A DNA stretch of 64,000 bases. Source: Escherichia coli. GTDB taxonomy: Bacteria > Pseudomonadota > Gammaproteobacteria > Enterobacterales > Enterobacteriaceae. Made by a program: the position numbers and the translations under genes. The stretch is taken from NCBI RefSeq assembly GCF_051903065.1, contig NZ_CP178439.1; one strand, written 5' to 3'. Positions 7,614 to 32,774 of this stretch are shown piece by piece (within the stretch, counting starts at the first letter, position 1; each line of letters opens with the position of its first letter). A model generated the notes under the pieces. That model was not told where the DNA came from. It did no database searches and worked only from the letters and a program-made list of their open reading frames with translations.

Positions 7614-7701
7614 TTCGATATGGGCATTTACTTATGCTTAAAGCTATAGTATAAAAACAATGAGCTTAAATATCAGCTCCCAAATTTGAGTAACTTTGCT
7701 T

Positions 7702-7712
7702 AAAGTTACTTT
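7702..7712. repeat. AAAGTWACTTT palindromic motif copy 3
   Basis: AAAGTTACTTT, intergenic; with the half-site AGTAACTTT at 7689-7697 forms a 9-bp hairpin AGTAACTTT-gctt-AAAGTTACT. Confidence 0.6.
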
Positions 7713-8007
7713 CGCGTTAAGCGTTGATTTAGCCGTGAAAAGCGGCCAGCTTAAACAAGCTGTAAGACACCACCGGCAAAATGTCACCTTTGTCGCTGGT
7801 GCACTTCCCATGCCTGAAAAAGGCAATCTGAATTTACCAAACCGTAACTAATTTAGCTCCTCCTGGAGCTATTTTTGTTGCGTACTTCTAATGCCAGATA
7901 GTATAAATCAGGCGGTTCATAGCTTACGGGAGATGAATGACAGGCTTTGCCTTCGTGTTGAAACAAAAAATTGTTTCTTCCTTCTTACTATATATAGGTG
8001 ACCCCAA

Positions 8008-8880
8008 ATGTCTAAAAATAAAGCTCGCAGTAAAGCCCTTCATCAAACCTTTAGTGAAATTATTCCAGAGATGGATAAGGCGCTAAACAAACAGCTCTTA
8101 GAAGTTCTGATGAAATATACAGAACGTGATAATGAACTGATTGTTATTTTGAATGAGGACGGCCCAAATATCATTGAACTTAAGTCTCTTAAGCCTGTGT
8201 CTTTGTTGGCCGAAAAGCTTTCTGCTTATTCAAGCTATTATCATGTGGATGTTGTGGAGCTCGTGGTCAAGAAAATTGATTTCGAAGGAGCTTATAAGCT
8301 TCTTAAAGCTTCCCCAGATGTACCACTTTTTAAAAGCTTAACTGAACTGGATAAATATCTTGTTGAGGAGTTTGAAAAATACGGATTAAATTCATTTCTT
8401 GACGTGGATAATCTGGATTACTCACTTGAAAAAGCCAGTGAACTCAAAAATGAGCAGTTAATAAATTGGGTTTCGGACATCATTTGCAAACGTGAAAAAT
8501 TAACTTTACGTAAGCGTTTTGATGTCGCAGTAAAGGCCCACTACGAAAATGTAGAAAAAATGTATGATACCATTCGTCCGTTAATGAAAAAACTGGGTTT
8601 CCCAGAAGATCTCATGACGCACACCTTTAGTGAGTTAAGCGTTTTTGAAACTAAAGGATGGGACCATGCAATAAAATCGAAAATTGAGACTCTCGCTAAG
8701 CGTGAAACTCAATATTTAGATGATGCGGCTAAAGCAGAGAATCGACGTCTTGTAACAGAGAAGTTGGAGAACTCTTTAGCGATTGCACCAACTAAACCAA
8801 CAAGAAATTGGTTACATATTGCCGGAATTGCCTGTTTGGTAGTCTGCACGTTCATGTATGTAACTAATAAATTTATTTAA
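8008..8880 (+). CDS. Hypothetical protein, C-terminal membrane anchor (ORFan array)
   Basis: 290-aa ORF; hydrophobic C-terminal segment IAGIACLVVCTFMYV; followed by a hairpin element. Confidence 0.55.
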   Translation: MSKNKARSKALHQTFSEIIPEMDKALNKQLLEVLMKYTERDNELIVILNEDGPNIIELKSLKPVSLLAEKLSAYSSYYHVDVVELVVKKIDFEGAYKLLKASPDVPLFKSLTELDKYLVEEFEKYGLNSFLDVDNLDYSLEKASELKNEQLINWVSDIICKREKLTLRKRFDVAVKAHYENVEKMYDTIRPLMKKLGFPEDLMTHTFSELSVFETKGWDHAIKSKIETLAKRETQYLDDAAKAENRRLVTEKLENSLAIAPTKPTRNWLHIAGIACLVVCTFMYVTNKFI

Positions 8881-8884
8881 TCCT

Positions 8885-8916
8885 GTTAAGGGGGAACCCT
8901 AACGGGGCTTCTCTTT
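8885..8916 (+). terminator. Structured GC-run intergenic element E1
   Basis: GTTAAGGGGG-aa-CCCTAAC-GGGGC then T-rich tract, between the stop at 8880 and the start at 8938. Confidence 0.4.
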
Positions 8917-8937
8917 GAACAAATCGAGGAGCGGAAA

Positions 8938-9315
8938 ATGTCATATCTTGAATATATCAATGAAGTAAAAGTGTCCGGGATAGTTATCAGTGCTGTGGAG
9001 AAAAAAATGACTGACCAGAGTATAGGTTTGTTAATAAAGCTCAAAAATAGGATGAAGACAGAAGTTGATGGTGAAATCACTGAGAGAGAATTTTCAGTTC
9101 AAATCAAGGTGTCGCCTGAAATGTATTCAACCTGTTTCACTGGTATAAATCAGGGTGATGAGTTGATGGTCTCCGGTTATATTGTTGTCGATACTATTAT
9201 GATTGAAGGGAGAGAACATCCTCTTGACTACATGAGAGTGGTAGCAACAAGTAAGTTGGCTCACATACCTAAACCTCTAAAAGGTTTTGGACAAAGTAGC
9301 TTTAATCAGATCTGA
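8938..9315 (+). CDS. Hypothetical protein
   Basis: 125-aa ORF, ATG start, same strand as neighbours, followed by a strong hairpin. Confidence 0.5.
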   Translation: MSYLEYINEVKVSGIVISAVEKKMTDQSIGLLIKLKNRMKTEVDGEITEREFSVQIKVSPEMYSTCFTGINQGDELMVSGYIVVDTIMIEGREHPLDYMRVVATSKLAHIPKPLKGFGQSSFNQI

Positions 9316-9322
9316 CATTAAA

Positions 9323-9366
9323 CCCACCCTAAAGGGGAGAAATCCCTTCATGGGATTTCTCCTTTT
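9323..9366 (+). terminator. Structured GC-run intergenic element E2 (rho-independent terminator-like)
   Basis: CCCACCC..GGGG, then an 11-bp stem GGAGAAATCCC / GGGATTTCTCC with loop TTCAT, then TTTT; the CTCC in the 3' arm is complementary to the downstream GGAG ribosome-binding site. Confidence 0.55.
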
Positions 9367-9375
9367 GGAGTCCCC

Positions 9376-10353
9376 ATGAAACAAAAATTTAGGGCTACTG
9401 CAATAAGTAGTAATCAACTTAGTTTTTTTTCTATACTCGATATAGATGAAGATGAAATAACGCAAATAGTTGATTCACCCAAAGAGCATTTAAATGATGC
9501 TTACACGTCCGGATTAAACTTTAAATCAGAAGAAAGTAACATTTCTGAGATAAATTATGATTCTGAAAGGCGTGAAAATCACCTTTATGAAAAATCCAAA
9601 TTACTTAAAAATCAGATTTTGCATACAATTAATTTTGCAACAGAAACAGATTATCTATATACGGTTGAAGAATATAACCCAGATTTGGGTGGTCTGGTAA
9701 TAGAATGGACCCCTGAGGATGTGTATGTTGTTTTTCTATCCGCTATGGAAGAGTCTTTGGAAATCATTAAAGAACTAGTGTTGAGGAGAAAGTTATTCTT
9801 CAAAGATGACAATGGTAATATCACAGTGAATCCACTTTTAGAAGCTGAAACACGGTGGTATATGTCAAAATCATTTGAATACACTTGTTTATCTCATGGA
9901 CTTGATGCATGTGAATTTAGAGCGGAATTAAAATCATGGCTCTATTATCATTCGCATCGTTCGATTAGTGAAAACACGAAATTAGCTGAATGCAGGAATG
10001 ATGATGAAATCATTTTGCATGATTGCAATGACGATATGGGCTGGGACATCTTCTTTGATCAGGATTATTTAATGTCAGAAAAAAAACTGGCTGTTAAATG
10101 GACTGACAGGGAAATTATGGATGTTTACATAAAAGCTTTTAAATCCTCATTAGAGTTGTTTGACGAGCTTGTTTCATGTGATCTGTTAACTAAACGAAAC
10201 GCTTTTGGCAAGTTAGAAATCAATCCAATATTCGAAAATCATTTTGAATGGATCATGTCTGAAGCTTTTGAAATAGTGGGAAATCATCTTGGTTATAATG
10301 TGCCTCAAATCAGGAAACTGATGGCAACTATTTGCCAAATGAATCTCAAATAA
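9376..10353 (+). CDS. Hypothetical protein
   Basis: 325-aa ORF, ATG start 10 nt after element E2. Confidence 0.55.
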   Translation: MKQKFRATAISSNQLSFFSILDIDEDEITQIVDSPKEHLNDAYTSGLNFKSEESNISEINYDSERRENHLYEKSKLLKNQILHTINFATETDYLYTVEEYNPDLGGLVIEWTPEDVYVVFLSAMEESLEIIKELVLRRKLFFKDDNGNITVNPLLEAETRWYMSKSFEYTCLSHGLDACEFRAELKSWLYYHSHRSISENTKLAECRNDDEIILHDCNDDMGWDIFFDQDYLMSEKKLAVKWTDREIMDVYIKAFKSSLELFDELVSCDLLTKRNAFGKLEINPIFENHFEWIMSEAFEIVGNHLGYNVPQIRKLMATICQMNLK

Positions 10354-10410
10354 AATGCCACTGGCAAACATCTGCCAGAGGGCGGTGTTTGCATTTTACC
10401 GGAGTTAAAA

Positions 10411-11469
10411 ATGTCTAATGCCGCTATGAAGTTAAATGAAACATCTTCTGATGCTTATGAAAAATTAGAAGCTCTTCTTTCCCCGGATGTTATAAAGTTA
10501 AAACATTATGTGGATAAAGGTGAGTATCTTTTAGTTCTAGCAAAGGACCTTTTTGGTATTCCAGAAATGGATCCAAAGATGGCTGTGCCTGTTTTCAAAA
10601 CTAAAACCTCGTATCGAGCTCCGCTGAACAAAGACTACATACCAAATCCCCGAATACTTGAACAAGTGGTTAAACTGCTTATCAGTCCGGATATAGATTT
10701 AAGTGTGTGTCTTAAAGGTGAGTCCGGTTCTGGCAAGACTGAAATGGTAATGTACATTAGCCACATGATGAATTGGCCGCTGACAATTAAGCAGATCAAC
10801 AGCAATATTCGAGTTGATGAGCTTGAAGGTGAGCGCAGTCTTAATGGTGGTAATACAGGTTTTGTACACAGCGATTTGGTAACGGGATTTCGTAATGGTC
10901 ACCTCATTCTTCTGGATGAAGTGGACAAAATCGATCCTGATACGGCAGCAAAACTTCACATGCCCATTGAACGTAAGCCCTGGTCACTCAGTGCTAATGG
11001 TGGTGAGGTTATAACTGCTAATGGCTACACGCGATTTATTGGTACTGCAAACACAAACATGAGTGGAGGCGCTCGCCGGTTCGTTTCTTCTCAACGTCAA
11101 GATGCAGCTTTTATAAAGCGGTTCTTGATAGTTGAAATGGAGAAGCCCGACAAAGTTGCTTTAACCAATGTGCTTACTAAACGATATAGCTCTTTGCCTT
11201 TTCAGGTCATTGAGAAGTTCGTAAGAGTAGCGATTGCAGTAAATGACTCTGGTACAGAAGACAGTGTGATGGATATTCGTCAATTAGTAGCTTGGGTTGG
11301 CACGTCGATGACGTTAAAAACCTTTAGTCTTCTTGACACTTTCAAAATAGCTTTTGCTTCTGCTTTACCTTTACATGTGGTCGATCTTGTTCTTCAAGCT
11401 ATAGATCTTTCTCTTGGCGAAGACAAGGATAAATCGCTGGAGTATTTCACAGCAAAAAAGTCGAGTTAG
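10411..11469 (+). CDS. AAA+ ATPase, MoxR/CbbQ/CobS-like
   Basis: Walker A GESGSGKT and Walker B HLILLDEVDK; 352 aa; a vWA-domain partner lies two genes downstream. Confidence 0.7.
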   Translation: MSNAAMKLNETSSDAYEKLEALLSPDVIKLKHYVDKGEYLLVLAKDLFGIPEMDPKMAVPVFKTKTSYRAPLNKDYIPNPRILEQVVKLLISPDIDLSVCLKGESGSGKTEMVMYISHMMNWPLTIKQINSNIRVDELEGERSLNGGNTGFVHSDLVTGFRNGHLILLDEVDKIDPDTAAKLHMPIERKPWSLSANGGEVITANGYTRFIGTANTNMSGGARRFVSSQRQDAAFIKRFLIVEMEKPDKVALTNVLTKRYSSLPFQVIEKFVRVAIAVNDSGTEDSVMDIRQLVAWVGTSMTLKTFSLLDTFKIAFASALPLHVVDLVLQAIDLSLGEDKDKSLEYFTAKKSS

Positions 11470-11780
11470 ATGGGATTTGTTATGAAACCTCTGATATTTG
11501 TATCTCAGAGTTATCCCATCTTGAATTTAGTGCGTTTTTAAGTACGGATGGTGCTGCTACCATTGCTATAGCAAAAAACGGAACTAATTTTACTGGACTT
11601 ATGCAACTGAATAACGACTATTCTTTATTGTTTTATCATGATGGTAAAATAAATATGGAAGGTCTGATTAAACAAATGGAATTAAAAGGTTATATGTATC
11701 AGGGAGCAATGGGCAATGATGATGTTGTTGCTGAGTTTCCCGGTATTCTTTTAATTTCACCAGAGTAGCTTTAATATCAA

Positions 11781-11827
11781 CCCTATCGGGAAATCTTTCC
11801 CGTTGGGGAGGGTTTCCCCTTTTTTTT
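11781..11827 (+). terminator. Structured GC-run intergenic element E3
   Basis: CGGGAAA-tc-TTTCCCG hairpin, GGGGA-GGGTT-TCCCC hairpin, T8 tract; GGGTTTC is complementary to the downstream GAAACCC next to the start codon. Confidence 0.5.
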
Positions 11828-11837
11828 GGAGAAACCC

Positions 11838-12965
11838 ATGACTTTAAATACTTCAATGCTTAACAAAGTATCTGCAAAACAAATCTCTGAGAATTTTGCA
11901 AAATCATATCCAGATTTACTGGAAGGTGCAGTTATAACAAAAATTGAAATAAGTGGCTGTCAAGGATCGCGTCGAACCGATAAAATCGATTTGTCTTATG
12001 ATGGAGATGATATTACGGATCAAAAAAGCGTATCTAAAAGCGAAGTACGCTGGATTGACATAAAAGCCCTTAGCTTCAAAAGTACGATTACCAGCAGAAT
12101 ATCAACTCTTTGCTCACGCTTGTGCATCCGCTATAGCAATATGTGGATTTTACCAGTATCCAGTATGGAAGAGTTTCTGGAAGGGGCCCAAGAGATTGAA
12201 CGAGAGTTTCAGGCAGGTATTCAAAACGTTGTAGACAATTATGAGATGCATATTGAGGCTGAAAAAAATAGAAGCCCAAGAATGTCTTCTTTGATTGATC
12301 AGTTGAAATTAACTAAAGATGATTTCATAAAATCCTTTAGATTTAATATTGCTCACTTTATTCCTTTTACGCCTATTAGCGTTGAAGGTGATGAAACCCA
12401 GGACTACTATCAGGAACAATTGATAACAGATCTGGCAGAAGAAGCAATGAAGGTTTATGAAAAAATTAGCAAAAATAACAATTTGCGCTCAAGTACTATT
12501 GACCGACTGAAGCAAATGCAAAATAAGATCATTAGCTTCATGTTTATACATAAAGAGGCGGCAGTACTTGCAGAAGCTATAAAACACATAATGAATAATT
12601 TACCTAAAGGTGCCATTTCTGAACCTCGCGACGTTGCGGTGTTACAGCAGTGGTTTTATTTCATGAGTGATGCTTCAATGTTAAAGCGTATTATTTCAGG
12701 AGAGCAAAAGGTTACTGACTGGTTGGAATCTATTACCAGATCATTTAATCAAAGCTCACAAACAGAACCGAACGCGCTACAGAACACAGGTATTGAAGCT
12801 ATTTTAGATTCAACAAATGTGTTCCAGGTTGAACCTGTCGTAGAGAACGATATAAATAACAGCACGTTTTCAAACACTGATCCTGTAGCTGAACCTGAGA
12901 AATCAGTTTCGCAACAGGAAGACAATGTTGAAAATGGTTTTGATATCGAGCTCAAAGGCTGGTAA
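11838..12965 (+). CDS. Hypothetical protein
   Basis: ORF in track from 11826 (TTG); ATG at 11838 with GGAGAAACCC upstream preferred; 375 aa. Confidence 0.55.
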   Translation: MTLNTSMLNKVSAKQISENFAKSYPDLLEGAVITKIEISGCQGSRRTDKIDLSYDGDDITDQKSVSKSEVRWIDIKALSFKSTITSRISTLCSRLCIRYSNMWILPVSSMEEFLEGAQEIEREFQAGIQNVVDNYEMHIEAEKNRSPRMSSLIDQLKLTKDDFIKSFRFNIAHFIPFTPISVEGDETQDYYQEQLITDLAEEAMKVYEKISKNNNLRSSTIDRLKQMQNKIISFMFIHKEAAVLAEAIKHIMNNLPKGAISEPRDVAVLQQWFYFMSDASMLKRIISGEQKVTDWLESITRSFNQSSQTEPNALQNTGIEAILDSTNVFQVEPVVENDINNSTFSNTDPVAEPEKSVSQQEDNVENGFDIELKGW

Positions 12966-12984
12966 CTGTTTGCTTTATTAAAAA

Positions 12985-13027
12985 CCCCAGATGGGTACTT
13001 CACCATCTGGGTGAGTACCCCTTTTTT
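12985..13027 (+). terminator. Structured GC-run intergenic element E4, interleaved dyads
   Basis: CCCAGATGG/CCATCTGGG and GGGTACT/AGTACCC dyads interleaved (pseudoknot-like or alternative hairpins), followed by TTTTTT. Confidence 0.5.
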
Positions 13028-13042
13028 ATAAAGAGGTATTCT

Positions 13043-15055
13043 ATGAAATTAGATCTTAAATCATCACCGCGCCATATTAAGCGTTTACAGAATATAGCAA
13101 AAGTCATTAGCGGCTTAGGCGATGTAAGAGTTGTAATAGACGACAATACCAAAGGACCGTATTTTGATCCTGTAAATAAAGTTTGTGTTTTACCAAACGG
13201 CGATTATAGCGATGATGACTTTGTCAGTCTGATTGAAGGTTTTACCTGTCATGAAGCTGGTCATGGTCGCTATACCGACAGCGAGGTTTACAGTGACGCC
13301 TTTAATAGTGTTCTCAAGTCATCTGAAGGGTTTACACGCTTCGATGACGGAATGAATGCAGAGTTTGAGAGCCTCGCTGAGAAACGTAAAGCTTATAGCA
13401 GGGCAAAACGTCTTACCGGGCTTATAAATCTGTTCGATGATGTACAGATGGAAGAGAAGGTTGGTAACGATTATCCGGATGCAAAGCGGCGGCTTGCAGC
13501 CACTTACGCACTGATGGTTAAAGCCGGAAGGATGACTCCTGATATATCTTCTCGTCCGGAAAATCCTGTCCTATTTATTGAGTGGTATCTGCTTAACTCA
13601 TTGCGAGTAAAAGTCCTTCAGCAGGCAGGTCACAAAGAAACACTCGATCCGTTTTTTGACTATGCCCAAAAGATACTTTCTCCAGTAATTTCTGATGTTG
13701 AGGAAATTTTTCATGATGCTCTTGGTTGTGAAAATACTCAGGGCTGTGAATCCCTTGCTCGTAAGACCCTGGCTCTTTTAGAGAGACTGCGGGATGAGGC
13801 AAGGGAACAACAGCAGCAGACAGAGCAGGAGGAGCAGGAGGCATATGATGAATCCGAGACCGAGACCGAGACCGATACCGAATCAGAAGATAAATCGCTT
13901 GAGTCGACTGATAGTCGTGAGGATGATTCTGAGGACGATAGTGAAGGTCAGGCAGATACTTCCGATAACTCTGATCTTGCTCAAGAGGGATGTTCTGAGC
14001 CTTCAGAACTTGCTGAAGATAACGAGGGAAATAATGAACCCACCGGTGGCAATCCCACAGGTGATAACATTATTGAAGACGATACTGATGCGATTAACCC
14101 TTCCGAGAGTGAATCAGATGAAGCCAGTTCGACTAACGTTGAAGATGAAAGTAACTTTTCATCGGCTCAATGGGAGATACTGGCAGATTTGTTGGATGCC
14201 TTTCTTGGCAGTGATGAGGATAGCGAAGATTATCACGATGCTTTGGCTAAAGAGATTGAAGGTATTGCATCAAAAGTATCCGATGACGTGAAAGCCGAAT
14301 TCGGTGCTTCTGAATGGGATATCCCTGATCTCCTTATCGATTTGAATGTTTACAATGAGGCTTTGTCTCTGAGTCATTCAATCGGTAGCGACTTGTCTGT
14401 TTTACAGCAGGTTAAAATGCGTGGCCGAAACAAAACTCATGAGCGTGGAATTACCTTCGATGGAAATCGATTAATTCTGTCACCAATGGGAGTTCGTGAT
14501 GTCTTCAGAGCTCAAAGCGAATCTAAAAATAGAGGGCATGTTGGCCTCGTATTAGTTCGTGATATTTCAGCGTCAATGGCTAATGATGAAAGATATATTC
14601 ATGCCATTAAGTCAGATCTTGCTTTATCGATGGCCGCTGAAAGTTTGTCAAAAATGCATGTCTCCAATATAGTCTTTCCCTTCAAGGAAAGTGAATTTGA
14701 GATTATCAAAACGTTTGATCAAAGCGTTGAGGAATCTCTATCGAAATTCACTCTTGGATGTAAGGGTTATTATACCCCTACGGGATCGGCTTTAATGGCA
14801 GCTGTTGATCTGTTACTTGACAGCCAATTCGATAGGAAAATAATTTTTCTTATAACTGATGGTTATCCGAATAAATCGGAATTTACTATCGGCGAAGTTA
14901 TGGAAAAGGCTAAATGTAATGGAATAGAAATCGTTGGTGTTGGTATTAAGACTGATGAAATAATTGGTTTTGAAACGGACACTTTCGTAACAGTTGATGA
15001 TACTTCTTTATTGTCTATTGAAGTCAGTAAGCTAGTTCATCAAATACTTTCTTAA
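13043..15055 (+). CDS. vWA-domain protein with long acidic linker (CobT/ViaA-like partner of the AAA+ ATPase)
   Basis: C-terminal vWA/MIDAS motifs (VRDISASM, TPTGSA, ITDGYPN); central Asp/Glu-rich low-complexity stretch (ETETETDTESEDKS and onward); 670 aa. Confidence 0.7.
   Translation: MKLDLKSSPRHIKRLQNIAKVISGLGDVRVVIDDNTKGPYFDPVNKVCVLPNGDYSDDDFVSLIEGFTCHEAGHGRYTDSEVYSDAFNSVLKSSEGFTRFDDGMNAEFESLAEKRKAYSRAKRLTGLINLFDDVQMEEKVGNDYPDAKRRLAATYALMVKAGRMTPDISSRPENPVLFIEWYLLNSLRVKVLQQAGHKETLDPFFDYAQKILSPVISDVEEIFHDALGCENTQGCESLARKTLALLERLRDEAREQQQQTEQEEQEAYDESETETETDTESEDKSLESTDSREDDSEDDSEGQADTSDNSDLAQEGCSEPSELAEDNEGNNEPTGGNPTGDNIIEDDTDAINPSESESDEASSTNVEDESNFSSAQWEILADLLDAFLGSDEDSEDYHDALAKEIEGIASKVSDDVKAEFGASEWDIPDLLIDLNVYNEALSLSHSIGSDLSVLQQVKMRGRNKTHERGITFDGNRLILSPMGVRDVFRAQSESKNRGHVGLVLVRDISASMANDERYIHAIKSDLALSMAAESLSKMHVSNIVFPFKESEFEIIKTFDQSVEESLSKFTLGCKGYYTPTGSALMAAVDLLLDSQFDRKIIFLITDGYPNKSEFTIGEVMEKAKCNGIEIVGVGIKTDEIIGFETDTFVTVDDTSLLSIEVSKLVHQILS
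14148..14158. repeat. AAAGTWACTTT palindromic motif copy 4
   Basis: AAAGTAACTTT inside the vWA gene acidic region (E-S-N-F). Confidence 0.6.
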
Positions 15056-15063
15056 TAAACTCT

Positions 15064-15099
15064 ACCCAATCGGGGCAAAAGGCCCCGGTGGGTCTTTTT
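15064..15099 (+). terminator. Intergenic element E5, rho-independent terminator
   Basis: ACCCAATCGGGGC-aaaag-GCCCCGGTGGGT nested hairpin followed by CTTTTT. Confidence 0.6.
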
Positions 15100-15126
15100 G
15101 CTCCATGAAGGAATAAGGAGCAAAAT

Positions 15127-15348
15127 ATGACTCAGATAAAAACTTACCGTGTAGAACATGAAAAAGTCGGTGCGATGCATAAAGTCCGTATTTTCGGACG
15201 TGTTGGTGAAGTTATAAGCAATGATAGCCCTCAGGAAAGAATCTTCCGCGAAGTCACTATAGCGGAGGGTAATAGCCAGCAGGCTGCGTTACTTGTAGAT
15301 AACTACATACAGCGTCTTGAGAATAATGGCTTCACGACTGAAGCATAA
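15127..15348 (+). CDS. Small hypothetical protein (73 aa)
   Basis: ATG start with AAGGAG upstream; flanked by hairpin elements E5 and E6. Confidence 0.5.
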   Translation: MTQIKTYRVEHEKVGAMHKVRIFGRVGEVISNDSPQERIFREVTIAEGNSQQAALLVDNYIQRLENNGFTTEA

Positions 15349-15354
15349 ATGTTG

Positions 15355-15377
15355 AGGGCCCCCGGGCCCTCTTTCTT
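15355..15377 (+). terminator. Intergenic element E6
   Basis: GAGGGCCC-CC-GGGCCCTC perfect hairpin followed by TTTCTT. Confidence 0.55.
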
Positions 15378-15461
15378 AAATTCTGCGTTGTGGGTTTCTC
15401 CCTGTCTTCTGCACCGCAGAAGGCATTGAGAAACTCACAATGCCAGATAAGAGAGATCATC

Positions 15462-16694
15462 ATGACTTATGCATCCCCGGCTCTTCGTCGTAATCCACAG
15501 GAAGTATCTGAACACTTTATTAAACTCGTTCATGCTCGAATTGCTGAAGTGTCTGGCTGGAAGTATATATTCGAAAGAATACCTGCTTTCAAAGACGCTT
15601 GTGCAAAAGCCCCGAGCCAGGTTCCTTGCCCGTTTACTGGCGCAGGGAAATCGAAGTTTCGTTTCCGACAAAAAGACCTTTATACCGGATGTGCGATCCA
15701 TAATGACTTTCCGGTAAATGAGTTTTGCGACGGAATTGATGTTCTGGCGAAATATTATGAATTAAGTAAAACGCAGACTTGCAAAAAGATTCTCTCAGAT
15801 TTTTTCGGGATGGATCTGCATGCTCCGTTAACTGACGCCGACATTGAAAATGAACGACGCTATAAATCAGCAGTTCGTGCCACAGAAACTCTTGACCGAG
15901 AGGAAGTGGCAAAGCGAATGCGAAAACTTGATGTGATGTATCACTATACCGGTGAAATCAAGCCTAATACTCCTGTTGCTTTGTACCTCCGTAATCGTGG
16001 GATCTCCCGCTTACTGAGTCACTTACCAAAGGATTTAGGCTTTAATAACCGGATCTACTATTGGGATAAAGATAAGCAGAAATCGATTATCTATCCGGGA
16101 ATGATTGCGATCTATCGTGACACCCGAGGTCGGCCTCTGACTATTCATAGAACATACGTAGACAAAAATGGTGATAAGGCACCTGTAGAAAATCCAAAGC
16201 TGATGATGAAGCCTCCTGCCGATATGACAGGTGGCTCAATTCAGTTGTTTGACCCTCACTATGATTCAGGTAGTTCGACCTGGACACTGGGAGTGGCTGA
16301 AGGGATCGAGAACGCGCTTTCTGTTGTAGAAGCGACTTCAACACCATGCTGGGCAGCCAGCTCCGCATGGTGCCTTGAAAACGTTACTGTTCCTGATTTT
16401 TTACTGCCTCCGCCGGATGTAAAATCTATAAACTTTTATATCTGGGCGGATAAGGATATTGCTAACTCACAAGGCACTCGTGCCGGTATTGAAGCTGCTC
16501 AGCGACTTCAAAGCCGCATGGTTGAGTTTTTGGCTAAACGATATCCCGCATCAAAGCTGACAATTGAAGTCTTCGAACCAGCACAAGATATTCCTGATGG
16601 GAAAAAGGGTATCGACTGGAACGATGTTCTCCAGTTAACAGGGCAGGATGGATTCCCGATTCACTGGGCTCCTGAATGTCTTAATCAGCTGTAA
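15462..16694 (+). CDS. DNA primase-like protein (zinc-ribbon plus Toprim)
   Basis: N-terminal CPFTGAGKSKFRF..GCAIHNDF resembles the primase-helicase zinc-binding motif; Toprim-like VAEGIENALSV and WADKDIANSQG (DxD); track ORF starts at GTG 15390, ATG 15462 preferred. Confidence 0.5.
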   Translation: MTYASPALRRNPQEVSEHFIKLVHARIAEVSGWKYIFERIPAFKDACAKAPSQVPCPFTGAGKSKFRFRQKDLYTGCAIHNDFPVNEFCDGIDVLAKYYELSKTQTCKKILSDFFGMDLHAPLTDADIENERRYKSAVRATETLDREEVAKRMRKLDVMYHYTGEIKPNTPVALYLRNRGISRLLSHLPKDLGFNNRIYYWDKDKQKSIIYPGMIAIYRDTRGRPLTIHRTYVDKNGDKAPVENPKLMMKPPADMTGGSIQLFDPHYDSGSSTWTLGVAEGIENALSVVEATSTPCWAASSAWCLENVTVPDFLLPPPDVKSINFYIWADKDIANSQGTRAGIEAAQRLQSRMVEFLAKRYPASKLTIEVFEPAQDIPDGKKGIDWNDVLQLTGQDGFPIHWAPECLNQL

Positions 16695-16701
16695 CAACGA
16701 T

Positions 16702-16733
16702 AACTCCCCCGCTTTTTGCGGGGGGGGTTATCT
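16702..16733 (+). terminator. Intergenic element E7
   Basis: CCCCCGC-TTTTT-GCGGGGG hairpin immediately after the stop at 16694. Confidence 0.5.
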
Positions 16734-16773
16734 TATCAATATTATATTTTAAAATTGTATTGATAAGATAACC
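16726..16773. promoter_or_regulatory. 14-bp perfect inverted repeat flanking a 20-bp AT-rich spacer
   Basis: GGTTATCTTATCAA (16726-16739) and TTGATAAGATAACC (16760-16773) around TATTATATTTTAAAATTGTA; sits in a 270-bp gene-free interval. Confidence 0.4.
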
Positions 16774-16904
16774 GCTTTCCTTCGTGATAATTACCTGCCT
16801 TTAAGGTCTTTTCACGGCTGAGATGCTTGCTCAGTTAAATAAATGTGCGGTACTACTGGCTATGGTCGGTTGTATGACATGGTTATTCCATAAACTATTA
16901 AAAC

Positions 16905-16930
16905 CCATAACGGGAGTATTACCGTTATGG
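16905..16930. promoter_or_regulatory. 9-bp inverted repeat, candidate operator upstream of the gene at 16965
   Basis: CCATAACGG-gagtatta-CCGTTATGG, 35 bp upstream of the ATG. Confidence 0.35.
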
Positions 16931-16964
16931 TGATGCTCGTCGTTTTACATCGGAGAGCATTTTA

Positions 16965-17486
16965 ATGAATTTTCAAATTAACGAAGTTTTTAATAAATTT
17001 GCTGCTGTTATAAAATCGCGCATCGTCAATGAACCATCGTCATGCTATTTGCTGCATGATAATGAGATAGATATAACGATTTTGAAACATAGCATATTAG
17101 AAAATGACAGAAACCTGTTGTACGTAGTTCGTCCTTCAGGAACGTGTTTGTTGCGTTGTGACAAATATTTCTATCCGAAATATTATCTTCGTTGCCGTGG
17201 AGATTATAAGTCATTCATATATGTCCATCTTGATCTACATAGTGGTGAAGCTAAAGAAATCACATGGGAGCAAGCAGACGATATGCTGTCTAGTCCAGGA
17301 AAACCCCCATTAAAAGGGAATCTTGGACGATTTGAGTATATAAAAGTTGTGGTTGAGGACCTTCGTATTCGAGGTTACGCTGATTATCTTCCTGCGTATA
17401 ATCTTGATGACCTTCGCCGTTTTGCCTTACAGGACGACCGCCCATCCCTTGTCAGATACATTGACAATGTCATGGCAACGGTCTGA
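16965..17486 (+). CDS. Hypothetical protein
   Basis: 173-aa ORF, ATG start. Confidence 0.5.
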   Translation: MNFQINEVFNKFAAVIKSRIVNEPSSCYLLHDNEIDITILKHSILENDRNLLYVVRPSGTCLLRCDKYFYPKYYLRCRGDYKSFIYVHLDLHSGEAKEITWEQADDMLSSPGKPPLKGNLGRFEYIKVVVEDLRIRGYADYLPAYNLDDLRRFALQDDRPSLVRYIDNVMATV

Positions 17487-17512
17487 TTGATTGCTAATTG
17501 ATTTACATATTT

Positions 17513-17539
17513 TCCCTGATGGCCAACCTGCATCAGGGA
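17513..17539. other. Intergenic hairpin
   Basis: TCCCTGATG-gccaacctg-CATCAGGGA dyad between the genes ending 17486 and starting 17565; no downstream T-tract. Confidence 0.35.
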
Positions 17540-17564
17540 GGCCTCAATAACGAATGGAGGCTGT

Positions 17565-18443
17565 ATGAAGTTAGCTACGGACCTGGTAAAAGCTATTTTG
17601 ATTAGAAATGGCGTTGAACCAGTAAATATAAGCGAATCATCTAAGTTATCTTTGAAACAACCACTGACAGAACTTAAATTCAGTTTATATTTGCGAACTG
17701 AGCATTTATCTCACTTCCTACCCGGTTATGTTTATTCTATAAAAGAATGTCCACTGTCATATGACATCGGGATCGAAATTCAGAAAATCTTCGAAAGTTT
17801 ACATTTGTTAAACGAAGAATTTGAATCCCTCGGTTTTGTTTCTGTATGGATAGAAATGCATCAAAGCATTTTTGAACAAAGTCGGTTTAAGAAAAGTAAC
17901 TTTACTTTTCGGGAGGAAGAGGTCGAGCTTGCTAAAGGGCTTGTTTGTTCTCACAATTCACAAATAAGTAATGCGGCTTATTTCTGGCTTCAGCACTTTG
18001 AGGAGTTTATGATTTATGTTCGTAATAAGCTTATCGACCTCTTTCGAGAGGCCTATGACCTGATCCTTGGAATGCAGCAAGTATTTTTCATTCGGGAAAA
18101 GGAAGAGCTGTTGAAAACTATAAGTTATGGCGATGAGCTGTATGAGGTGAAATTCATGGCGGCTGAGCTTTACTCTATCGAACAGAACTTAAAGTGTTCT
18201 GAATCGATAAGTACAAAATCTCAAGCTTCGGCATATATTAACCGCATCCGTGAGTTTGTGCGTTCGGGGTGGAGGCAGGGCTATATAGTCTGCCATCATA
18301 AGCGAAGTAATCAAATTTCATCATTGTCATTACCGATGTACTTGAAAGATACGTCAGGCCGAAGTGCTCGAAAGCGAGTAAAACGTCTTATATCTTCTAC
18401 AGTTTGTGGTAGAAATAAAGATTTAGGTCTTACAGATTTTTAA
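17565..18443 (+). CDS. Hypothetical protein
   Basis: 292-aa ORF; contains one AAAGTAACTTT motif copy. Confidence 0.55.
   Translation: MKLATDLVKAILIRNGVEPVNISESSKLSLKQPLTELKFSLYLRTEHLSHFLPGYVYSIKECPLSYDIGIEIQKIFESLHLLNEEFESLGFVSVWIEMHQSIFEQSRFKKSNFTFREEEVELAKGLVCSHNSQISNAAYFWLQHFEEFMIYVRNKLIDLFREAYDLILGMQQVFFIREKEELLKTISYGDELYEVKFMAAELYSIEQNLKCSESISTKSQASAYINRIREFVRSGWRQGYIVCHHKRSNQISSLSLPMYLKDTSGRSARKRVKRLISSTVCGRNKDLGLTDF
17893..17903. repeat. AAAGTWACTTT palindromic motif copy 5
   Basis: AAAGTAACTTT inside the ORFan gene at 17565-18443 (K-S-N-F). Confidence 0.6.
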
Positions 18444-18453
18444 TTAAATTATA

Positions 18454-18497
18454 CCCATGTGGGGATCACACCCCATATGGGAGTGATCCCTTTTTTT
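18454..18497 (+). terminator. Structured GC-run intergenic element E8, interleaved dyads
   Basis: CATGTGGGG/CCCCATATG and GGGATCAC/GTGATCCC dyads interleaved, then T7; a third GGATCAC copy overlaps the downstream ribosome-binding site. Confidence 0.5.
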
Positions 18498-18513
18498 ATT
18501 GAGAGAGGATCAC

Positions 18514-19269
18514 ATGAAAATTATCGAAAAAATCATTAATGCCTTTTTGGTTGTTCAACATAAAAAAATACAGGTTAAAAACATTACATTTTTAGACAAT
18601 GGGCAGGGCATGTTCTCTGGTATGTCTTTTGATGCTGATGTTTCACTGGAGTTTATGTATGAATCAGCAAAAGCATATAGTTCTTGTTTCTGTGATATTC
18701 CCTTTCCAGGTTTTGAAGATGCAAATCTGGAGGAAATTACGAAATTTCAATTAGATGCTCTGAAGCAAAGAAAGAATCATTCTTTCTTTGTTAACCATTT
18801 GAGGTTTCCTATAGTTTTAAGGGAAGGGTGCAAAATCGAAAGAGGAGAAGTCTATTCAATTTCGAATTGCACTTATAATAAAGAAAGATTGCAGTATCTT
18901 TTTTCTCAGGATATTTACGGTAAGTTGTATAATTCCTTAGAGAAAGAATTAAGCTCGTTTTTCTCATTTATCAATGTTGAGGTGCACGAGTTGTTAAAAG
19001 ATGCTGTATGCTTTGCATTAAAAATCCTGAATAAGATATCTTTGGATACACCTGAAAGACTTATTAAAGCTTTTAATTATCGTGACTGGTATTGTAGTTA
19101 CGATGTTGAGCTTTTTAGGAAAGGCTTACCTGGTCATATTCTGGAAGAGCTCATTGCTCCAGATATCTTACTTTCAGACCTTAACGGTTGTAGAAAAATA
19201 CTTAGAAATGCAAAACGATTTCTAAATGGACATACACAAACCAATTGTGTTTATATTAAATATGAATGA
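18514..19269 (+). CDS. Hypothetical protein
   Basis: Track ORF from TTG 18499; ATG 18514 with GAGAGAGGA upstream preferred; about 251 aa. Confidence 0.55.
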   Translation: MKIIEKIINAFLVVQHKKIQVKNITFLDNGQGMFSGMSFDADVSLEFMYESAKAYSSCFCDIPFPGFEDANLEEITKFQLDALKQRKNHSFFVNHLRFPIVLREGCKIERGEVYSISNCTYNKERLQYLFSQDIYGKLYNSLEKELSSFFSFINVEVHELLKDAVCFALKILNKISLDTPERLIKAFNYRDWYCSYDVELFRKGLPGHILEELIAPDILLSDLNGCRKILRNAKRFLNGHTQTNCVYIKYE

Positions 19270-19462
19270 TGGTTGGGGCCTGTTGATACCTCACACTCAG
19301 CTAAGTTGATGTCTGACAAAGAAATTAATAACCGAAGTGACTTGAAGAATTTTTCAAAGGTCTTTTTCAAAGAGTGTTTAAGTTCTGGTAAGTCGGAATA
19401 TGAAAACCATCTTAGTGAAAAAGAACATGCGCTTCGCTATAATTATTAATTAAAATTATTTT

Positions 19463-19510
19463 CTCCCATAGGGATTTCTCCCTATGGGAGAAATCCCTCT
19501 ATTAAGAGGG
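19463..19510 (+). terminator. Structured GC-run intergenic element E9
   Basis: TCCCATAGGGA and GGGATTTCTCCC/GGGAGAAATCCC dyads (same arms as E2); CCCTCT-atta-AGAGGG can sequester the downstream ribosome-binding site. Confidence 0.5.
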
Positions 19511-19517
19511 TATTGAA

Positions 19518-20438
19518 ATGAATGCTATACAAAAGTTAGTTGAATCTATTCTTGTTAAAATGGGTTTTGTTGGCGCTGTAGTGGAAAATATATATTTGGA
19601 TTCAAAACCATTTCGGCATATTCGATTTGTGGCTGATATTCCAGTAATATCTTTTCTACCTCATTTGGTGAAATATCTTAAGGGTGCAGACCATCTTTAC
19701 AGTGGTAACGATGATTTGCATCCTCTTTTCATTTATTTTTCCGAAGCGGCTACATTAAAAGCAGGTCCTGTAAATCTCGCGAACTTTCGTTTTGAAGTTT
19801 CTATAGCTTCAACTCATTTACGACTGGTCTCAGAGCAGCCTGATTTGCTTTTCAAAGGATTTAACCGGGATAATCTAGAATACGTTTATTACCGCTCAGA
19901 TTTGGCCTCTAAGGATCTTATACTAGGCCTTGTTGAACACGGTTCTCCTTTCATAAAACATCTACATGGACTTATACAAAAGCGAATTTTAAACGAGTTC
20001 TCTCTGATTTTTTCTGTTCTTGAAAAGATTTTAGAAAGCGCGAAGCCACAAATTCTTGCTTGCTTCCATAGTGTTGATTATGAAATGAACGTAAAAATAA
20101 TAGCCGAAGCTATACCTGAAACTGTATCTAATCAGATAGTCACATCTGATTATATAGTTAATTCTATATCAGATGCGGACAAGTTTATAAATCATGTTCG
20201 TCGCTATTTAGCAGGCAGGGTAATGAAGAGGCGGATATACGCTGAATTAGATGTTTGTGAAGAAACATCAAGTATTTCACTAGTGAACTTAGGATGCTTT
20301 ACGTCTCCTCTGCTCGTTACGGAATATCAAATGTTTAAGCCACACTCTTCAGGGTTATATCGAAAAGCTATAAACAACTCCTTAAAACAGTTCAAACCAG
20401 AAATGCATGTACCTTCTGAAGAACTCTTTTATAATTAA
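19518..20438 (+). CDS. Hypothetical protein
   Basis: 306-aa ORF, ATG start. Confidence 0.55.
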   Translation: MNAIQKLVESILVKMGFVGAVVENIYLDSKPFRHIRFVADIPVISFLPHLVKYLKGADHLYSGNDDLHPLFIYFSEAATLKAGPVNLANFRFEVSIASTHLRLVSEQPDLLFKGFNRDNLEYVYYRSDLASKDLILGLVEHGSPFIKHLHGLIQKRILNEFSLIFSVLEKILESAKPQILACFHSVDYEMNVKIIAEAIPETVSNQIVTSDYIVNSISDADKFINHVRRYLAGRVMKRRIYAELDVCEETSSISLVNLGCFTSPLLVTEYQMFKPHSSGLYRKAINNSLKQFKPEMHVPSEELFYN

Positions 20439-20442
20439 TCTA

Positions 20443-20486
20443 ACCCATCCGGGAACCTGCTTCCCGGTGGGAAGCACTTCCTTTTT
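20443..20486 (+). terminator. Structured GC-run intergenic element E10
   Basis: CCGGGAA/TTCCCGG and GGAAG-cac-TTCC dyads followed by TTTTT; GAGGTAGTGTAAATG ribosome-binding context downstream. Confidence 0.5.
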
Positions 20487-20504
20487 AGTCATGAGGTAGT
20501 GTAA

Positions 20505-21368
20505 ATGTTTAAAGAATCTGACCACGTGGAATTTGTTAGTGCCTTTCTTTATCAAAATTTAGGCCTTAATGTTTCCGCTGACGATATAACCGTTCAATTA
20601 TCTGATACTTCGTTCGACAAAGTAACCTTTGATTACGATGTAGATATCGATAATTTAAATTGTATGTTGGATCTCTACATATCTGAGCTAATAAAGCACA
20701 ACGCATCTTACTCCGATTCTATTCTTTTGAAACAAAAAATAATTTATTTTCTTGGAGTATTTAAGAATTTCGGATTTTTTACGTTTGATATTCGCGGATA
20801 TAGTAATACTTTAAGCCCAGTTAAAGTTATTGATATTGTTTCAATGATTATTAATGACTGTGAAGAGTTATCTAAAGCTAATTCTTCTACTGATGCTATA
20901 AGAAATCTTTATCTCGATAAAATGAAGGTGGATGGGAAAGTGTTAGTTGCGAAATTTGCACTTAAACAGTTTTTTCATTCCGACTTTGGTGACTTTATCT
21001 CATTTGTCGAGAAAAGAATTACAGATTGTCTTAATGAAACTTTAAGGATTATCAAAGCTGTTGAACATGGCTTTGTACGTGTAGGGCAGCATAAGATTAA
21101 TCGCCGTATTAATGATGACTTAAAGTTATGCATTGATTTCAATACTGATGATTATCCGGCAAATATGCCAGATATATATATTAAGTTTAACGATACATTT
21201 GATGGGAACGGGGCGTTATATTGTGACAATGATGCCCTCATATCCCTCTATACCGATGTTGCTTCAATTATCAATGTGCCGGTGATGATGGAAGTAAGAT
21301 TGATCAATAAAAGAGGGCGTGTTGTCTGTGATTCTTCGCATTCAACTTACGTATCTCGGCTTTGTTGA
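20505..21368 (+). pseudogene. Hypothetical protein, paralog A; 3' end truncated by IS903
   Basis: Clear paralog of the gene at 22681-23637 (KVDGKVLVAKFALKQFF vs QVDGQVMIARFALQQFW). The ORF runs into the IS903 left end; removing the IS restores a C-terminus similar to the paralog. Confidence 0.6.
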
Positions 21369-22414
21369 ATAAATCGAACTTTTGCTGAGTTGAAGGATCA
21401 GATCACGTATCTTCCCGACAACGCAGACCGTTCCGTGGCAAAGCAAAAGTTCAAAATCACCAACTGGCCCACCTACAATAAAGCCCTCATCAACCGTGGC
21501 TCCATAACTTTCTGGCTGGATGATGAAGCTATTCAGGCCTGGTATGAGTCAGCAACACCTTCTTCACGAGGCAGACCTCAGCGCTATTCTGACCTTGCCA
21601 TCACGACTGTGCTGGTCATTAAACGCGTATTCAGGCTGACCCTGCGCGCTGCGCAGGGCTTTATTGATTCCATTTTTTCTCTGATGAACGTTCCGCTACG
21701 CTGCCCGGATTACAGCTGTGTCAGCAGGCGGGCAAAGTCGGTTAATGTCAGTTTCAAAACGCCCACCCGGGGTGAAATCGCACACCTGGTAATTGATTCC
21801 ACCGGGCTGAAGGTCTTCGGTGAAGGCGAGTGGAAAGTCAAAAAGCATGGCCAGGAACGCCGCCGTATCTGGCGTAAGCTGCATCTCGCCGTTGACAGTA
21901 AAACACATGAAATCATCTGCGCTGACCTGTCGCTGAACAACGTTACGGACTCAGAGGCCTTCCCCGGGTTAATCCGGCAAACCCACCGGAAAATCAGGTC
22001 AGCCGCCGCCGATGGCGCTTACGATACCCGGCTATGTCACGATGAACTGCGGCGTAAGAAAATCAGCGCGCTTATCCCTCCCCGAAAAGGTGCGGGTTAC
22101 TGGCCCGGTGAATATGCAGACCGTAACCGTGCAGTGGCTAATCAGCGAATGACCGGGAGTAATGCGCGGTGGAAATGGACAACAGATTACAACCGTCGCT
22201 CGATAGCGGAAACGGCGATGTACCGGGTAAAACAGCTGTTCGGGGGTTCACTGACACTGCGTGACTACGATGGTCAGGTTGCAGAGGCTATGGCCCTGGT
22301 ACGAGCGCTGAACAAAATGACGAAAGCAGGTATGCCTGAAAGCGTGCGTATTGCCTGAAAACACAACCCGCTACGGGGGAGACTTACCCGAAATCTGATT
22401 TATTCAACAAAGCC
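21358..22414 (+). mobile_element. IS903 (IS5 family), complete, 1057 bp
   Basis: 18-bp terminal inverted repeats GGCTTTGTTGAATAAATC at both ends; 9-bp direct target duplication ACGTATCTC at 21349-21357 and 22415-22423. Confidence 0.9.
21435..22358 (+). CDS. IS903 transposase
   Basis: 307-aa ORF from GTG 21435 (track extends upstream to TTG 21390); spans nearly the whole element between the inverted repeats; matches my recollection of the IS903 transposase. Confidence 0.85.
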   Translation: MAKQKFKITNWPTYNKALINRGSITFWLDDEAIQAWYESATPSSRGRPQRYSDLAITTVLVIKRVFRLTLRAAQGFIDSIFSLMNVPLRCPDYSCVSRRAKSVNVSFKTPTRGEIAHLVIDSTGLKVFGEGEWKVKKHGQERRRIWRKLHLAVDSKTHEIICADLSLNNVTDSEAFPGLIRQTHRKIRSAAADGAYDTRLCHDELRRKKISALIPPRKGAGYWPGEYADRNRAVANQRMTGSNARWKWTTDYNRRSIAETAMYRVKQLFGGSLTLRDYDGQVAEAMALVRALNKMTKAGMPESVRIA

Positions 22415-22529
22415 ACGTATCTCTCGAAAGTAATGACCGATACAGAGTAACTGATCGCACATTACTAATAACTGAAGCTTTTGACGATTTTCGTAACGCG
22501 TCTCAATGATCCTTTTGCTTCAGTCCAAA

Positions 22530-22540
22530 AAAGTAACTTT
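22530..22540. repeat. AAAGTWACTTT palindromic motif copy 6
   Basis: AAAGTAACTTT, intergenic; embedded between CTTCAGTCCAA and TTGGCTGAAG inverted repeats. Confidence 0.6.
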
Positions 22541-22620
22541 GGTTGGCTGAAGACACTTGTCTATGACAATGTAAAATCTGTCGCTGGCATCTTCTTTTAG
22601 CTTAACCAAATTTTTATCTA

Positions 22621-22662
22621 ACCCAGTGGGGAAGTCGCTTCCCTTCTGGGGCACTTCCTCTC
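22621..22662 (+). terminator. Structured GC-run intergenic element E11
   Basis: CCCAGTGGGGAAG-tcg-CTTCCC..GGGG runs ahead of the GAGGTAGTGTATATG start context, as upstream of paralog A. Confidence 0.4.
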
Positions 22663-22680
22663 AAATTCGAGGTAGTGTAT

Positions 22681-23637: not shown

Positions 23638-23676
23638 TTCTTTCCCTGATTTTGATTTTTTCTCACATACTCTTAT

Positions 23677-23701
23677 GGCACGGTTTCCGTGCCTTTTTTT
23701 T
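23677..23701 (+). terminator. Rho-independent terminator
   Basis: GGCACGG-ttt-CCGTGCC followed by T8. Confidence 0.7.

Positions 23702-30184: not shown

Positions 30185-32774
<2,590 letters not shown>

Follow-up and report, generated by a model that had tools for sequence, protein, structure and literature searches.

Structured spacers in an IncHI2 gene cluster

The stretch of Escherichia coli DNA analysed here, 64,000 nucleotides (nt) of contig NZ_CP178439.1 that we call the window, is IncHI2 plasmid DNA: it shows 100% identity to IncHI2 plasmids such as NZ_CP037959, and it had no match in the phage collection searched. Our subject is a same-strand gene cluster at 8-23 kb, located beyond trhN and trhI, where the Tra2 transfer region ends, and in particular the spacers between its genes, where a segment of the RNA can pair with the Shine-Dalgarno sequence (SD) of the next gene. 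The genes are labelled, in order, g1, g2, g3, AAA ATPase, small open reading frame (ORF), DUF3150, VWA, g73, toprim/primase-like, g173, g292, gA, gB, gC and gD. Scans of ten cluster proteins against NCBIfam and PHROGs gave a primase-like match for the toprim protein only and no candidate RNA-binding regulator, and gC and gD are the sole detectable paralogue pair of the cluster. The gaps between the genes are mostly 57-78 nt long and are filled with structure.

Each RNA was folded from the upstream stop codon to 15 nt beyond the start codon. Eleven of the 12 short spacers share a design made up of a stable hairpin (P1), an anti-SD strand (X′) that often runs into a T-tract, the strand holding the SD and its spacer to the start codon, and a further strand (X) that lies inside P1. 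When X′ pairs with the SD/spacer strand the helix P3 is formed, and when it pairs with X the result is a terminator-like hairpin, P2. The minimum free energy (MFE) and centroid folds consist of P1 and P3 in 10 of the 12 spacers, with the SD bases having an unpaired probability of about zero. P3 is worth -8 to -14 kcal/mol in the spacers of the window, and comparison with dinucleotide shuffles gives folding z-scores between -2.6 and -7.4. Set beside REP, ERIC or MITE-like elements, in which many copies have one sequence consensus, the modules have a common architecture and a short 5′ motif, (A/U)CCC(A/U)..GGG, that appears to open P1 in most copies, while the X and X′ sequences are gene-specific. 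When positions 7500-24500 were scanned with the Rfam 15 covariance models, nothing came near a gathering score, and the four matches obtained were at chance level.

An earlier reading of the DNA, which we call the original prediction, had pointed out four pairings of this kind, and all of them are present as claimed: CTCC-TTTT-GGAG at 9359-9370 before the ATG at 9376; GGGTTTC (11810-11816), T8 (11820-11827) and GAAACCC (11831-11837) before the ATG at 11838; GGATCAC at 18463-18469 and again at 18507-18513, with GTGATCC at 18483-18489, before the ATG at 18514; and CCCTCT-ATTA-AGAGGG at 19495-19510 before the ATG at 19518. The helices exceed these motifs before 11838, 18514 and 19518 (Table 1), and the same arrangement is also found before the starts at 8938, 13043, 15127, 16965, 17565, 20505 and 22681, with a variant form in which the start codon itself is paired before 10411.

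The original prediction held that the 3′ arm of a terminator hairpin, or the sequence after its T-tract, could alternatively pair with the SD, and it proposed folding the intergenic RNAs as read-through and as newly initiated transcripts. The complementarity is indeed specific and is conserved with compensatory changes, as described below, but it is not a weak alternative. In the read-through context the SD pairing is competitive and, in the ten spacers mentioned above, dominant; what was thought to be a side alternative to a terminator forms, together with the separate hairpin P1, the dominant predicted read-through fold. No separate promoter was identified in the structured spacers of 57-78 nt, although no formal promoter test was made. 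Because the spacers are short and structured and no promoter was identified in them, a difference between read-through and newly initiated transcripts does not seem likely.

Specificity, conservation and the third strand

To compare spacers, the cost of opening the SD was taken as the free energy of unpairing positions -16 to -4. In a swap control, where the 5′ part of one spacer was joined to the SD part of another, opening the SD cost 8.55 kcal/mol in cognate joins versus 5.14 kcal/mol in non-cognate joins (permutation p<1e-5, with 0 of 100,000 permutations reaching the cognate mean). Since cognate joins are costlier to open than non-cognate ones, the complementarity is not merely a generic match of CTCC with GGAG. 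Dinucleotide shuffles of the spacer 5′ parts gave a summed z of 5.5. At single junctions the z for opening was 4.5 at 18514, 3.4 at 15127, 2.7 at 16965, 2.6 at 8938, 2.5 at 11838 and 2.4 at 13043; the junction at 19518 was weak (1.55), and that at 9376 did not rise above its own shuffles (0.09). The median opening cost of the 14 cluster genes is 9.1 kcal/mol compared with 4.9 kcal/mol for 34 other genes of the plasmid (Mann-Whitney p=5e-4). The highest cost outside the cluster, 16.1 kcal/mol, belongs to istA, the transposase gene of IS100. The SD of istA is buried by the hairpin GCTCTCCTGATTCAGGAGAGC at about 30885-30906 (29841 in L035 coordinates), an example within the window of the SD masking used by insertion sequences.

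We collected orthologous junctions from IncHI1 plasmids (~73% DNA identity), from a third lineage (L003, L008), from a 99%-identical IncHI2 variant, and from Klebsiella IncHI1B-type and pKO41-type plasmids, in which the proteins are only ~40% identical. Two more lineages (L016 and L033) came from 24 metagenomic contigs, and a contig scan with the DUF3150 protein yielded one additional locus only. In every lineage nearly all junctions have a P3 worth -8 to -16 kcal/mol, and its sequence often differs. At the DUF3150 junction, for instance, the paired strands are GGGUUUCCCC/GGAGAAACCC in IncHI2, AGGUUUUCCCA/UGGAGAAAACCU in IncHI1 and GAUAUUUUUCCGGU/ACUGGAGAAAUAUC in IncHI1B-type plasmids, and at the gB junction CCCUCU/AGAGGG of IncHI2 is replaced at the same place in L033 by UUCCUC/GAGGAA. 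At the g3 junction of IncHI1, the 3′ arm of the hairpin covers both the SD and the AUG with 12 base pairs (bp) worth -16.1 kcal/mol. The mean cognate opening cost was 9.1 kcal/mol over 45 junction-lineage pairs, and when the 5′ part from one lineage was joined to the SD part from a second, the resulting chimeras lost ~2 kcal/mol on average, 72% of them falling below the parental mean.

Column-wise covariation is unreliable on MAFFT alignments that mix IncHI1/HI2 with IncHI1B-type sequences because of indels, and we used per-sequence helix tables along with the chimeras. Among six distinct sequences of the gA junction, P1, P2 and P3 are paired at 99-100%. One X′ column of this junction changes from A to G, and both its partner in X and its partner in the SD-spacer strand change from U to C. 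P2 is 100% paired in the six sequences, with one compensatory pair, and P3 has AU-to-GC and UA-to-AU compensatory changes. RNAalifold gave a P1+P3 consensus for the DUF3150, VWA and g73 junctions, with three compensatory pairs in P1 and P3 at the VWA junction and a GC-to-AU compensatory change in P3 of the g73 junction inside the IncHI1B group. Between IncHI2 and IncHI1, identity is 0.63-0.93 in the spacers and ~0.5 at codon third positions. In 57 of 80 sequences the sense RNA folds more stably than its reverse complement, with a mean difference of 2.3 kcal/mol; such a bias is expected if G-U pairs matter and argues for selection on the + strand RNA rather than on DNA. A DNA-level reading of the repeats as protein operators or cruciforms is unlikely, given that the + strand RNA folds better than its complement and makes use of G-U pairs.

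In most modules X′ is complementary not only to the SD strand but also to X, which occupies the distal 5′ arm and the loop of P1. Before 18514, X is GGGGATCAC, X′ is GTGATCCC and the SD strand has GGATCAC. X:X′ duplexes, made from hand-chosen segments, average -16.5 kcal/mol for cognate and -9.0 kcal/mol for non-cognate combinations (p<5e-6). X′ thus has two competing partners, one of which, X, is locked up by P1. P2 resembles a terminator because it adjoins the T-tract, and from the swap controls and the cross-lineage helices we conclude that a single strand does serve both the terminator-like helix and the SD mask, as originally proposed. An H-type pseudoknot between the P1 loop and X′ was rejected on geometry, since a 1-nt linker would have to span an 11-bp helix.

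A terminator scan found 30 terminator-like sites, whereas 12.7 were expected. Several of these are in the cluster spacers (including 11788-11818, 11805-11819, 15069-15089 and 16914-16938), and some are on the minus strand at P1. Runs of T4 to T8 follow X′ at 9363, 10394, 11820, 13022, 15095, 18491 and 20482. We folded only the RNA that would be present when the polymerase is at the T-tract, which gives thermodynamic estimates. The hairpin adjoining the T-tract was favoured only before 9376, 10411, 11838 and 15127; the outcome was mixed before 13043, and the hairpin was not favoured before 18514 and 20505. When explicit structures were compared, P1 and P2 were roughly iso-energetic at 13043, 16965 and 19518, P2 won by 5.4 kcal/mol at 11838, and P1 won by 9.5 kcal/mol at 18514 and by 6.0 kcal/mol at 20505. 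Barriers for direct-path refolding between P1 and P2 were estimated at ~17-25 kcal/mol. Because P1 is transcribed first, it should often trap the RNA and so act as a built-in antiterminator.

The T-tract is also less constant than the pairing. In IncHI1 the U-tract of the DUF3150 junction reads ATTTCTAAATCT and that of the VWA junction TTTATCAAAT, and P1, P2 and P3 are kept at both. Orthologues keep the U-tract at other junctions such as gA, and in several modules the run of U simply belongs to the anti-SD strand or lies in the P3 loop. Some junctions probably do terminate transcription, yet termination would not be their common denominator. In the predicted folds, it is the SD mask and not the terminator that is the dominant and conserved feature of the spacers.

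Table 1. Modules in the cluster spacers, in window coordinates (energies, gaps and costs in kcal/mol; gap, P1 versus P2)
Downstream gene (start)	Module (strand)	P1 or hairpin	P2	Anti-SD strand	T-tract	SD strand	P3 or predicted fold	z
g2 (ATG 8938)	8882..8937 (+)	8882-8907		8907-8916		8923-8932	8 bp, -7.9; MFE P1+P3	-3.1
g3 (ATG 9376)	9331..9375 (+)	hairpin 9331-9366		3′ arm 9352-9362	T4 9363-9366	9367-9374	GGAG pairs with 5′ flank of hairpin in MFE; CTCC/GGAG hairpin only near-optimal	
AAA ATPase (ATG 10411)	10361..10413 (+)	hairpin A 10361-10378; overlapping hairpin B 10364-10392					GCATTTT 10391-10397 pairs with AAAATGT 10407-10413, start codon included (MFE); opening -13..+3 costs 6.4	-3.0
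DUF3150 (ATG 11838)	11781..11837 (+)	11781-11808	11788-11818	11810-11819	T8 11820-11827	11828-11837	9 bp, -12.6; T8 as loop	-4.45
VWA (ATG 13043)	12986..13042 (+)	12986-13011	12993-13020	13013-13024		13030-13041	11 bp, -10.0; gap 0.6	
g73 (ATG 15127)	15064..15126 (+)	P1/terminator hairpin 15064-15093		T-tract + GCTCC 15096-15104		GGAGCAAAA 15117-15125	9 bp, -10.3	-4.6
g173 (ATG 16965)	16905..16964 (+)	16905-16930	16914-16938	16932-16942		16951-16961	10 bp, -12.1; gap 0.3	-5.2
g292 (ATG 17565)	17514..17564 (+)	17514-17538		GGCCTC 17540-17545		GAGGCT 17557-17562	SD paired in MFE; orthologues keep 9-bp P3 with other sequences	
gA (ATG 18514)	18454..18513 (+)	18454-18481	18461-18490	18483-18494, into T7		18501-18513	12 bp, -13.8	-6.6
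gB (ATG 19518)	19460..19517 (+)	19460-19493	19471-19497	CCCTCT 19495-19500		AGAGGG 19505-19510	6 bp, -8.1; gap 0.5	-6.1
gC (ATG 20505)	20444..20504 (+)	20444-20471	20458-20476	20474-20483		20493-20502	9 bp, -8.4; P1 beats P2 by 6	
gD (ATG 22681)	22622..22680 (+)	22622-22651		22652-22660		22669-22677	MFE P1+P3; opening cost 12.0	-4.7

Translational masking and its alternatives

The three-way complementarity is specific, dominant in the predicted folds and conserved with compensatory changes. On balance, we think that the spacers are probably conserved cis-acting translational masks that are built as three-strand switches. On polycistronic read-through RNA, P1 and P3 would be the ground state, in which the ribosome-binding site is hidden and translation of the downstream gene is low. 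A switch of X′ to X would form P2 and free the SD, and if P2 formed while the polymerase was still on the U-tract, it would favour termination as well. SD-opening costs of 8-14 kcal/mol are expected to cut initiation substantially. We infer that P3 lowers translation in vivo and that the choice between P1 and P2 sets or switches expression.

Proteomics of four IncHI1 plasmids detected the cluster proteins in 3-7 of 12 plasmid-condition combinations (PMC5390554 Table S3). In pB71, each cluster protein was seen with 0-3 peptides, while TrhI, TrhN and the lipoprotein, which are neighbours of the cluster, had 7-10 (PMC5390554 Table S3). This sparse detection is compatible with masking but is not specific to it.

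Several points weigh against this interpretation. The toprim gene has an exposed SD with another conserved hairpin ahead of it, and masking is only moderate at the AAA junction. Low protein levels could be explained equally well by a weak promoter or by termination, and a weaker SD could stand in for a mask that is purely constitutive. The support comes from predicted folds and sequence comparison. Each junction is represented by ~6-10 distinct sequences that are phylogenetically related, so that formal covariation power is low; with few independent lineages, the evidence is consistent and spread over many junctions rather than strong in per-column statistics.

That a three-strand design is conserved despite the simpler option of a weak SD suggests that the masks have a conditional role, and conservation of the X strand implies that the alternative state, P2 with a free SD, matters. 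Candidate triggers for the switch would be kinetic partitioning during transcription, a terminating upstream ribosome, RNase E acting in the AU-rich P3 loop, or a trans-acting factor, possibly one that recognises the shared (A/U)CCC..GGG start of P1. We tentatively suggest, while regarding it as rather improbable, that the modules form a chain of bistable riboregulators that relays expression from cistron to cistron, where an event at the end of the upstream gene, such as the arrival of the terminating ribosome or the binding of a plasmid- or host-encoded factor to the start of P1, would unlock P1 and let X capture X′, at once exposing the next ribosome-binding site and creating the terminator helix. 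If so, the relay would set both translation and transcript length of a 12-14 gene IncHI backbone cluster, junction by junction.

A form of the mask model with a named trigger is that a ribosome, as it terminates on the upstream gene, opens P1 at its base, so that X captures X′ and the SD 40-60 nt downstream is released; translation of each cistron would then require translation of the one before it. P1 begins 5-13 nt past the stop codon at most junctions, and when the first 13-16 nt after the stop were forced to be unpaired, the opening cost dropped by more than 4 kcal/mol at gA (three lineages), DUF3150 (IncHI1/HI2), VWA (IncHI1B-type) and gC. The strand topology is like that of ermC-type attenuation, and in place of the g3/AAA module of IncHI1/HI2 some lineages show a 27-nt gap or an ATGA overlap. 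However, a footprint of ~10 nt past the stop, an estimate from general knowledge that we deem more realistic, has a small effect at most junctions. P1 lies 20-27 nt from the stop at VWA, g292 and gB in IncHI1, where the constraint is without effect, and about half of the junctions do not respond at any footprint tried. As an account of the cluster, coupling through the terminating ribosome is unlikely.

Cleavage of the RNA is a less probable explanation, and one that we doubt. Here an RNase E cut in the AU-rich P3 loop would part X′ from the SD and activate translation, leaving the upstream mRNA with a protective 3′ hairpin of P1 or P2. Such modules for processing and stability would give all three helices a role, the P3 loops are single-stranded and rich in A and U, and another repeated hairpin module in the spacers of a related Aeromonas plasmid suggests a general need for structured intercistronic RNA. 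Against this, the P3 loop before 19518 is just 4 nt long.

It is very unlikely that the spacers simply hold ordinary intrinsic terminators, some of them bidirectional, in front of strong ribosome-binding sites, with the SD complementarity as a by-product of pyrimidine-rich next to purine-rich sequence. The excess of terminator-like sites in the scan, including those in spacers and on the minus strand at P1, would be accounted for, as would the four junctions where the hairpin at the T-tract is favoured and the 9376 pairing that does not exceed its own shuffles. But the complementarity reaches into the gene-specific spacer between the SD and the AUG, is specific to the cognate gene and covaries across lineages, and in IncHI1 the T-tracts have decayed where the mask persists. 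The terminator helix is also 6-9.5 kcal/mol worse than P1 at 18514 and 20505, and bacterial genomes in general are reported to be poor in anti-SD motifs lying shortly upstream of an SD (bioRxiv 10.1101/086108).

RNA thermometers, in which pairing of a U-rich strand with the SD would melt on warming, can practically be set aside: there are U-runs within several P3 helices and IncHI transfer is thermoregulated (PMC7366339), but the helices are long and mostly Watson-Crick, opening is predicted to cost 7.4-11.5 kcal/mol even at 42 C and 6.2-9.5 kcal/mol at 50 C, and tra thermoregulation is ascribed to H-NS/Hha and TrhR/TrhY-HtdA (PMC7366339). Unlike the marginally stable SD helix of a fourU or ROSE-like thermometer, which opens between about 30 and 42 C, the masks stay closed in silico at 42 C. 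An upstream segment in the coding region that could oppose P1 was looked for by eye before the gA junction, and none was found there.

Known systems and neighbouring features

The principle that an upstream complementary segment masks the SD on transcripts coming from upstream is already known. Insertion sequences such as IS10 and IS50 have ribosome-binding sites that are masked by fold-back on read-through transcripts. The ribosome-binding sites of I-TevI, segB and mobE of phage T4 are masked on read-through transcripts too (PMC2988022). As would be the case in the cluster, the SD is paired with an upstream stretch of its own RNA, and transcripts from upstream are poorly translated. In these systems, however, a promoter inside or after the masking segment gives an unmasked transcript, and no such promoter was identified in the cluster spacers; the cluster also differs in having a mask at ~12 consecutive junctions and a third strand, X, that competes for the anti-SD.

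CT-rich anti-SD insulators in sigma-54 promoters silence read-through translation from within ~25 nt upstream of the SD (Levy et al., bioRxiv 10.1101/086108). The likeness lies in pyrimidine-rich anti-SD:SD pairing that silences read-through transcripts. The insulator motifs are generic and 3-5 nt long, whereas a cluster helix has 6-14 bp, takes in part of the gene-specific spacer, is specific to its cognate gene and lies within alternative hairpins. Serial anti-SD masks run counter to the general depletion of anti-SD motifs near ribosome-binding sites that has been reported.

Mutually exclusive helices that share a strand are the basis of ermC/cat translational attenuation and of terminator/antiterminator attenuators. 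As with ermC and cat, the SD would be masked in the ground state and freed by an alternative fold, and the anti-SD has a second partner upstream; as with attenuators, P1 is formally the antiterminator of P2. Unlike ermC and cat, the cluster spacers have no leader ORF, the upstream frames being full-length genes of 73-670 amino acids (aa), and the cluster has no known stalling signal and no evident ligand or antibiotic signal. Metastable, fold-back and long-range elements are also found in hok/sok-type mRNA (tac, ucb, dcb, fbi) and in the coat-replicase pairing of MS2. There, too, translation is set by which complementary segment pairs with the initiation region, and which one does so is governed by the order of folding, by processing or by translation upstream. 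Those systems use long-range pairing, concern a single gene and, for hok, involve an antisense RNA, none of which was found in the cluster.

In the open literature on IncHI intergenic and terminator structures and on intercistronic anti-SD elements of conjugative plasmids, subscription journals excepted, we found no description of the modules. What appears to be new is the use of gene-specific three-strand modules in series, at about a dozen consecutive junctions, conserved over IncHI1, IncHI2 and IncHI1B-type backbones. Among the major carriers of multidrug, colistin and heavy-metal resistance in Salmonella, E. coli and Enterobacter are the IncHI1 and IncHI2 plasmids, whose conserved backbone genes mostly lack a known function or mode of regulation. 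If the mask model is true, a dozen backbone genes in a row would be under a conserved layer of post-transcriptional control, which would account for how little of their protein is detected and would offer a handle for turning these genes on to learn their function. The cluster would also be a natural case, serial and gene-specific, of one anti-SD strand that is common to a terminator-like helix and an SD mask.

The spacer between g73 and the toprim gene (15382-15446) holds a long, very stable hairpin (region MFE -44.7 kcal/mol, z -7.4). The 21-mer of its 5′ arm, ATTCTGCGTTGTGGGTTTCTC, is identical in IncHI2, IncHI1 and IncHI1B-type plasmids, with proteins only ~40% identical, and an exact match to it retrieved 24 metagenomic contigs. 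After the toprim gene, at 16704-16778, there is a strong terminator-like hairpin, CTCCCCCGC..GCGGGGGGG, and downstream of it a 16-bp inverted repeat without mismatches, GGTTATCTTATCAATA..TATTGATAAGATAACC. This repeat resembles an operator, with a second transcription unit that would begin there and run from g173 onward.

Two genes near the end of the cluster are altered in the window. gA is truncated to 251 aa by a stop at 19269, and has 311 aa in a 99%-identical Enterobacter IncHI2 lineage (L004). Because of this truncation, the 248-nt stretch before 19518 is mostly the dead 3′ end of gA, and the actual spacer before gB is at ~19450-19517. Relative to the reference plasmid, gC is broken by a 1,066-bp insertion at 21358-22423, which displaces gD to 22681. 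The insertion begins with GGCTTTGTTGAATAAATCG and has the 9-bp duplication ACGTATCTC on both flanks, and from its end sequence we take it to be IS903-like.

The g3/AAA junction is a 57-59-nt structured module in IncHI1 and IncHI2, a 27-nt unstructured gap in one Klebsiella lineage (L005/L007, 8655-8681), and an ATGA stop/start overlap in another (L010, 5790-5793). In the AAA/DUF3150 spacer of L005, L006, L014, L025 and L034, a poly-C of 7 to 11 C lies just 5′ of P1. Its length differs among IncHI1B-type sequences that are otherwise identical, which could be slippage-prone variation or sequencing noise. Finally, plasmid pAeme5 of Aeromonas media (L009) has a distantly related cluster, with toprim, AAA, DUF3150, VWA and other genes, and a different repeated spacer module, in which tandem mini-hairpins, AATCCTTCGGGATATGACGCCTTCGGGCA, with UUCG-type loops precede the SD of many genes (for example at 7617-7699, 15155-15214, 17372-17450 and 18416-18518).

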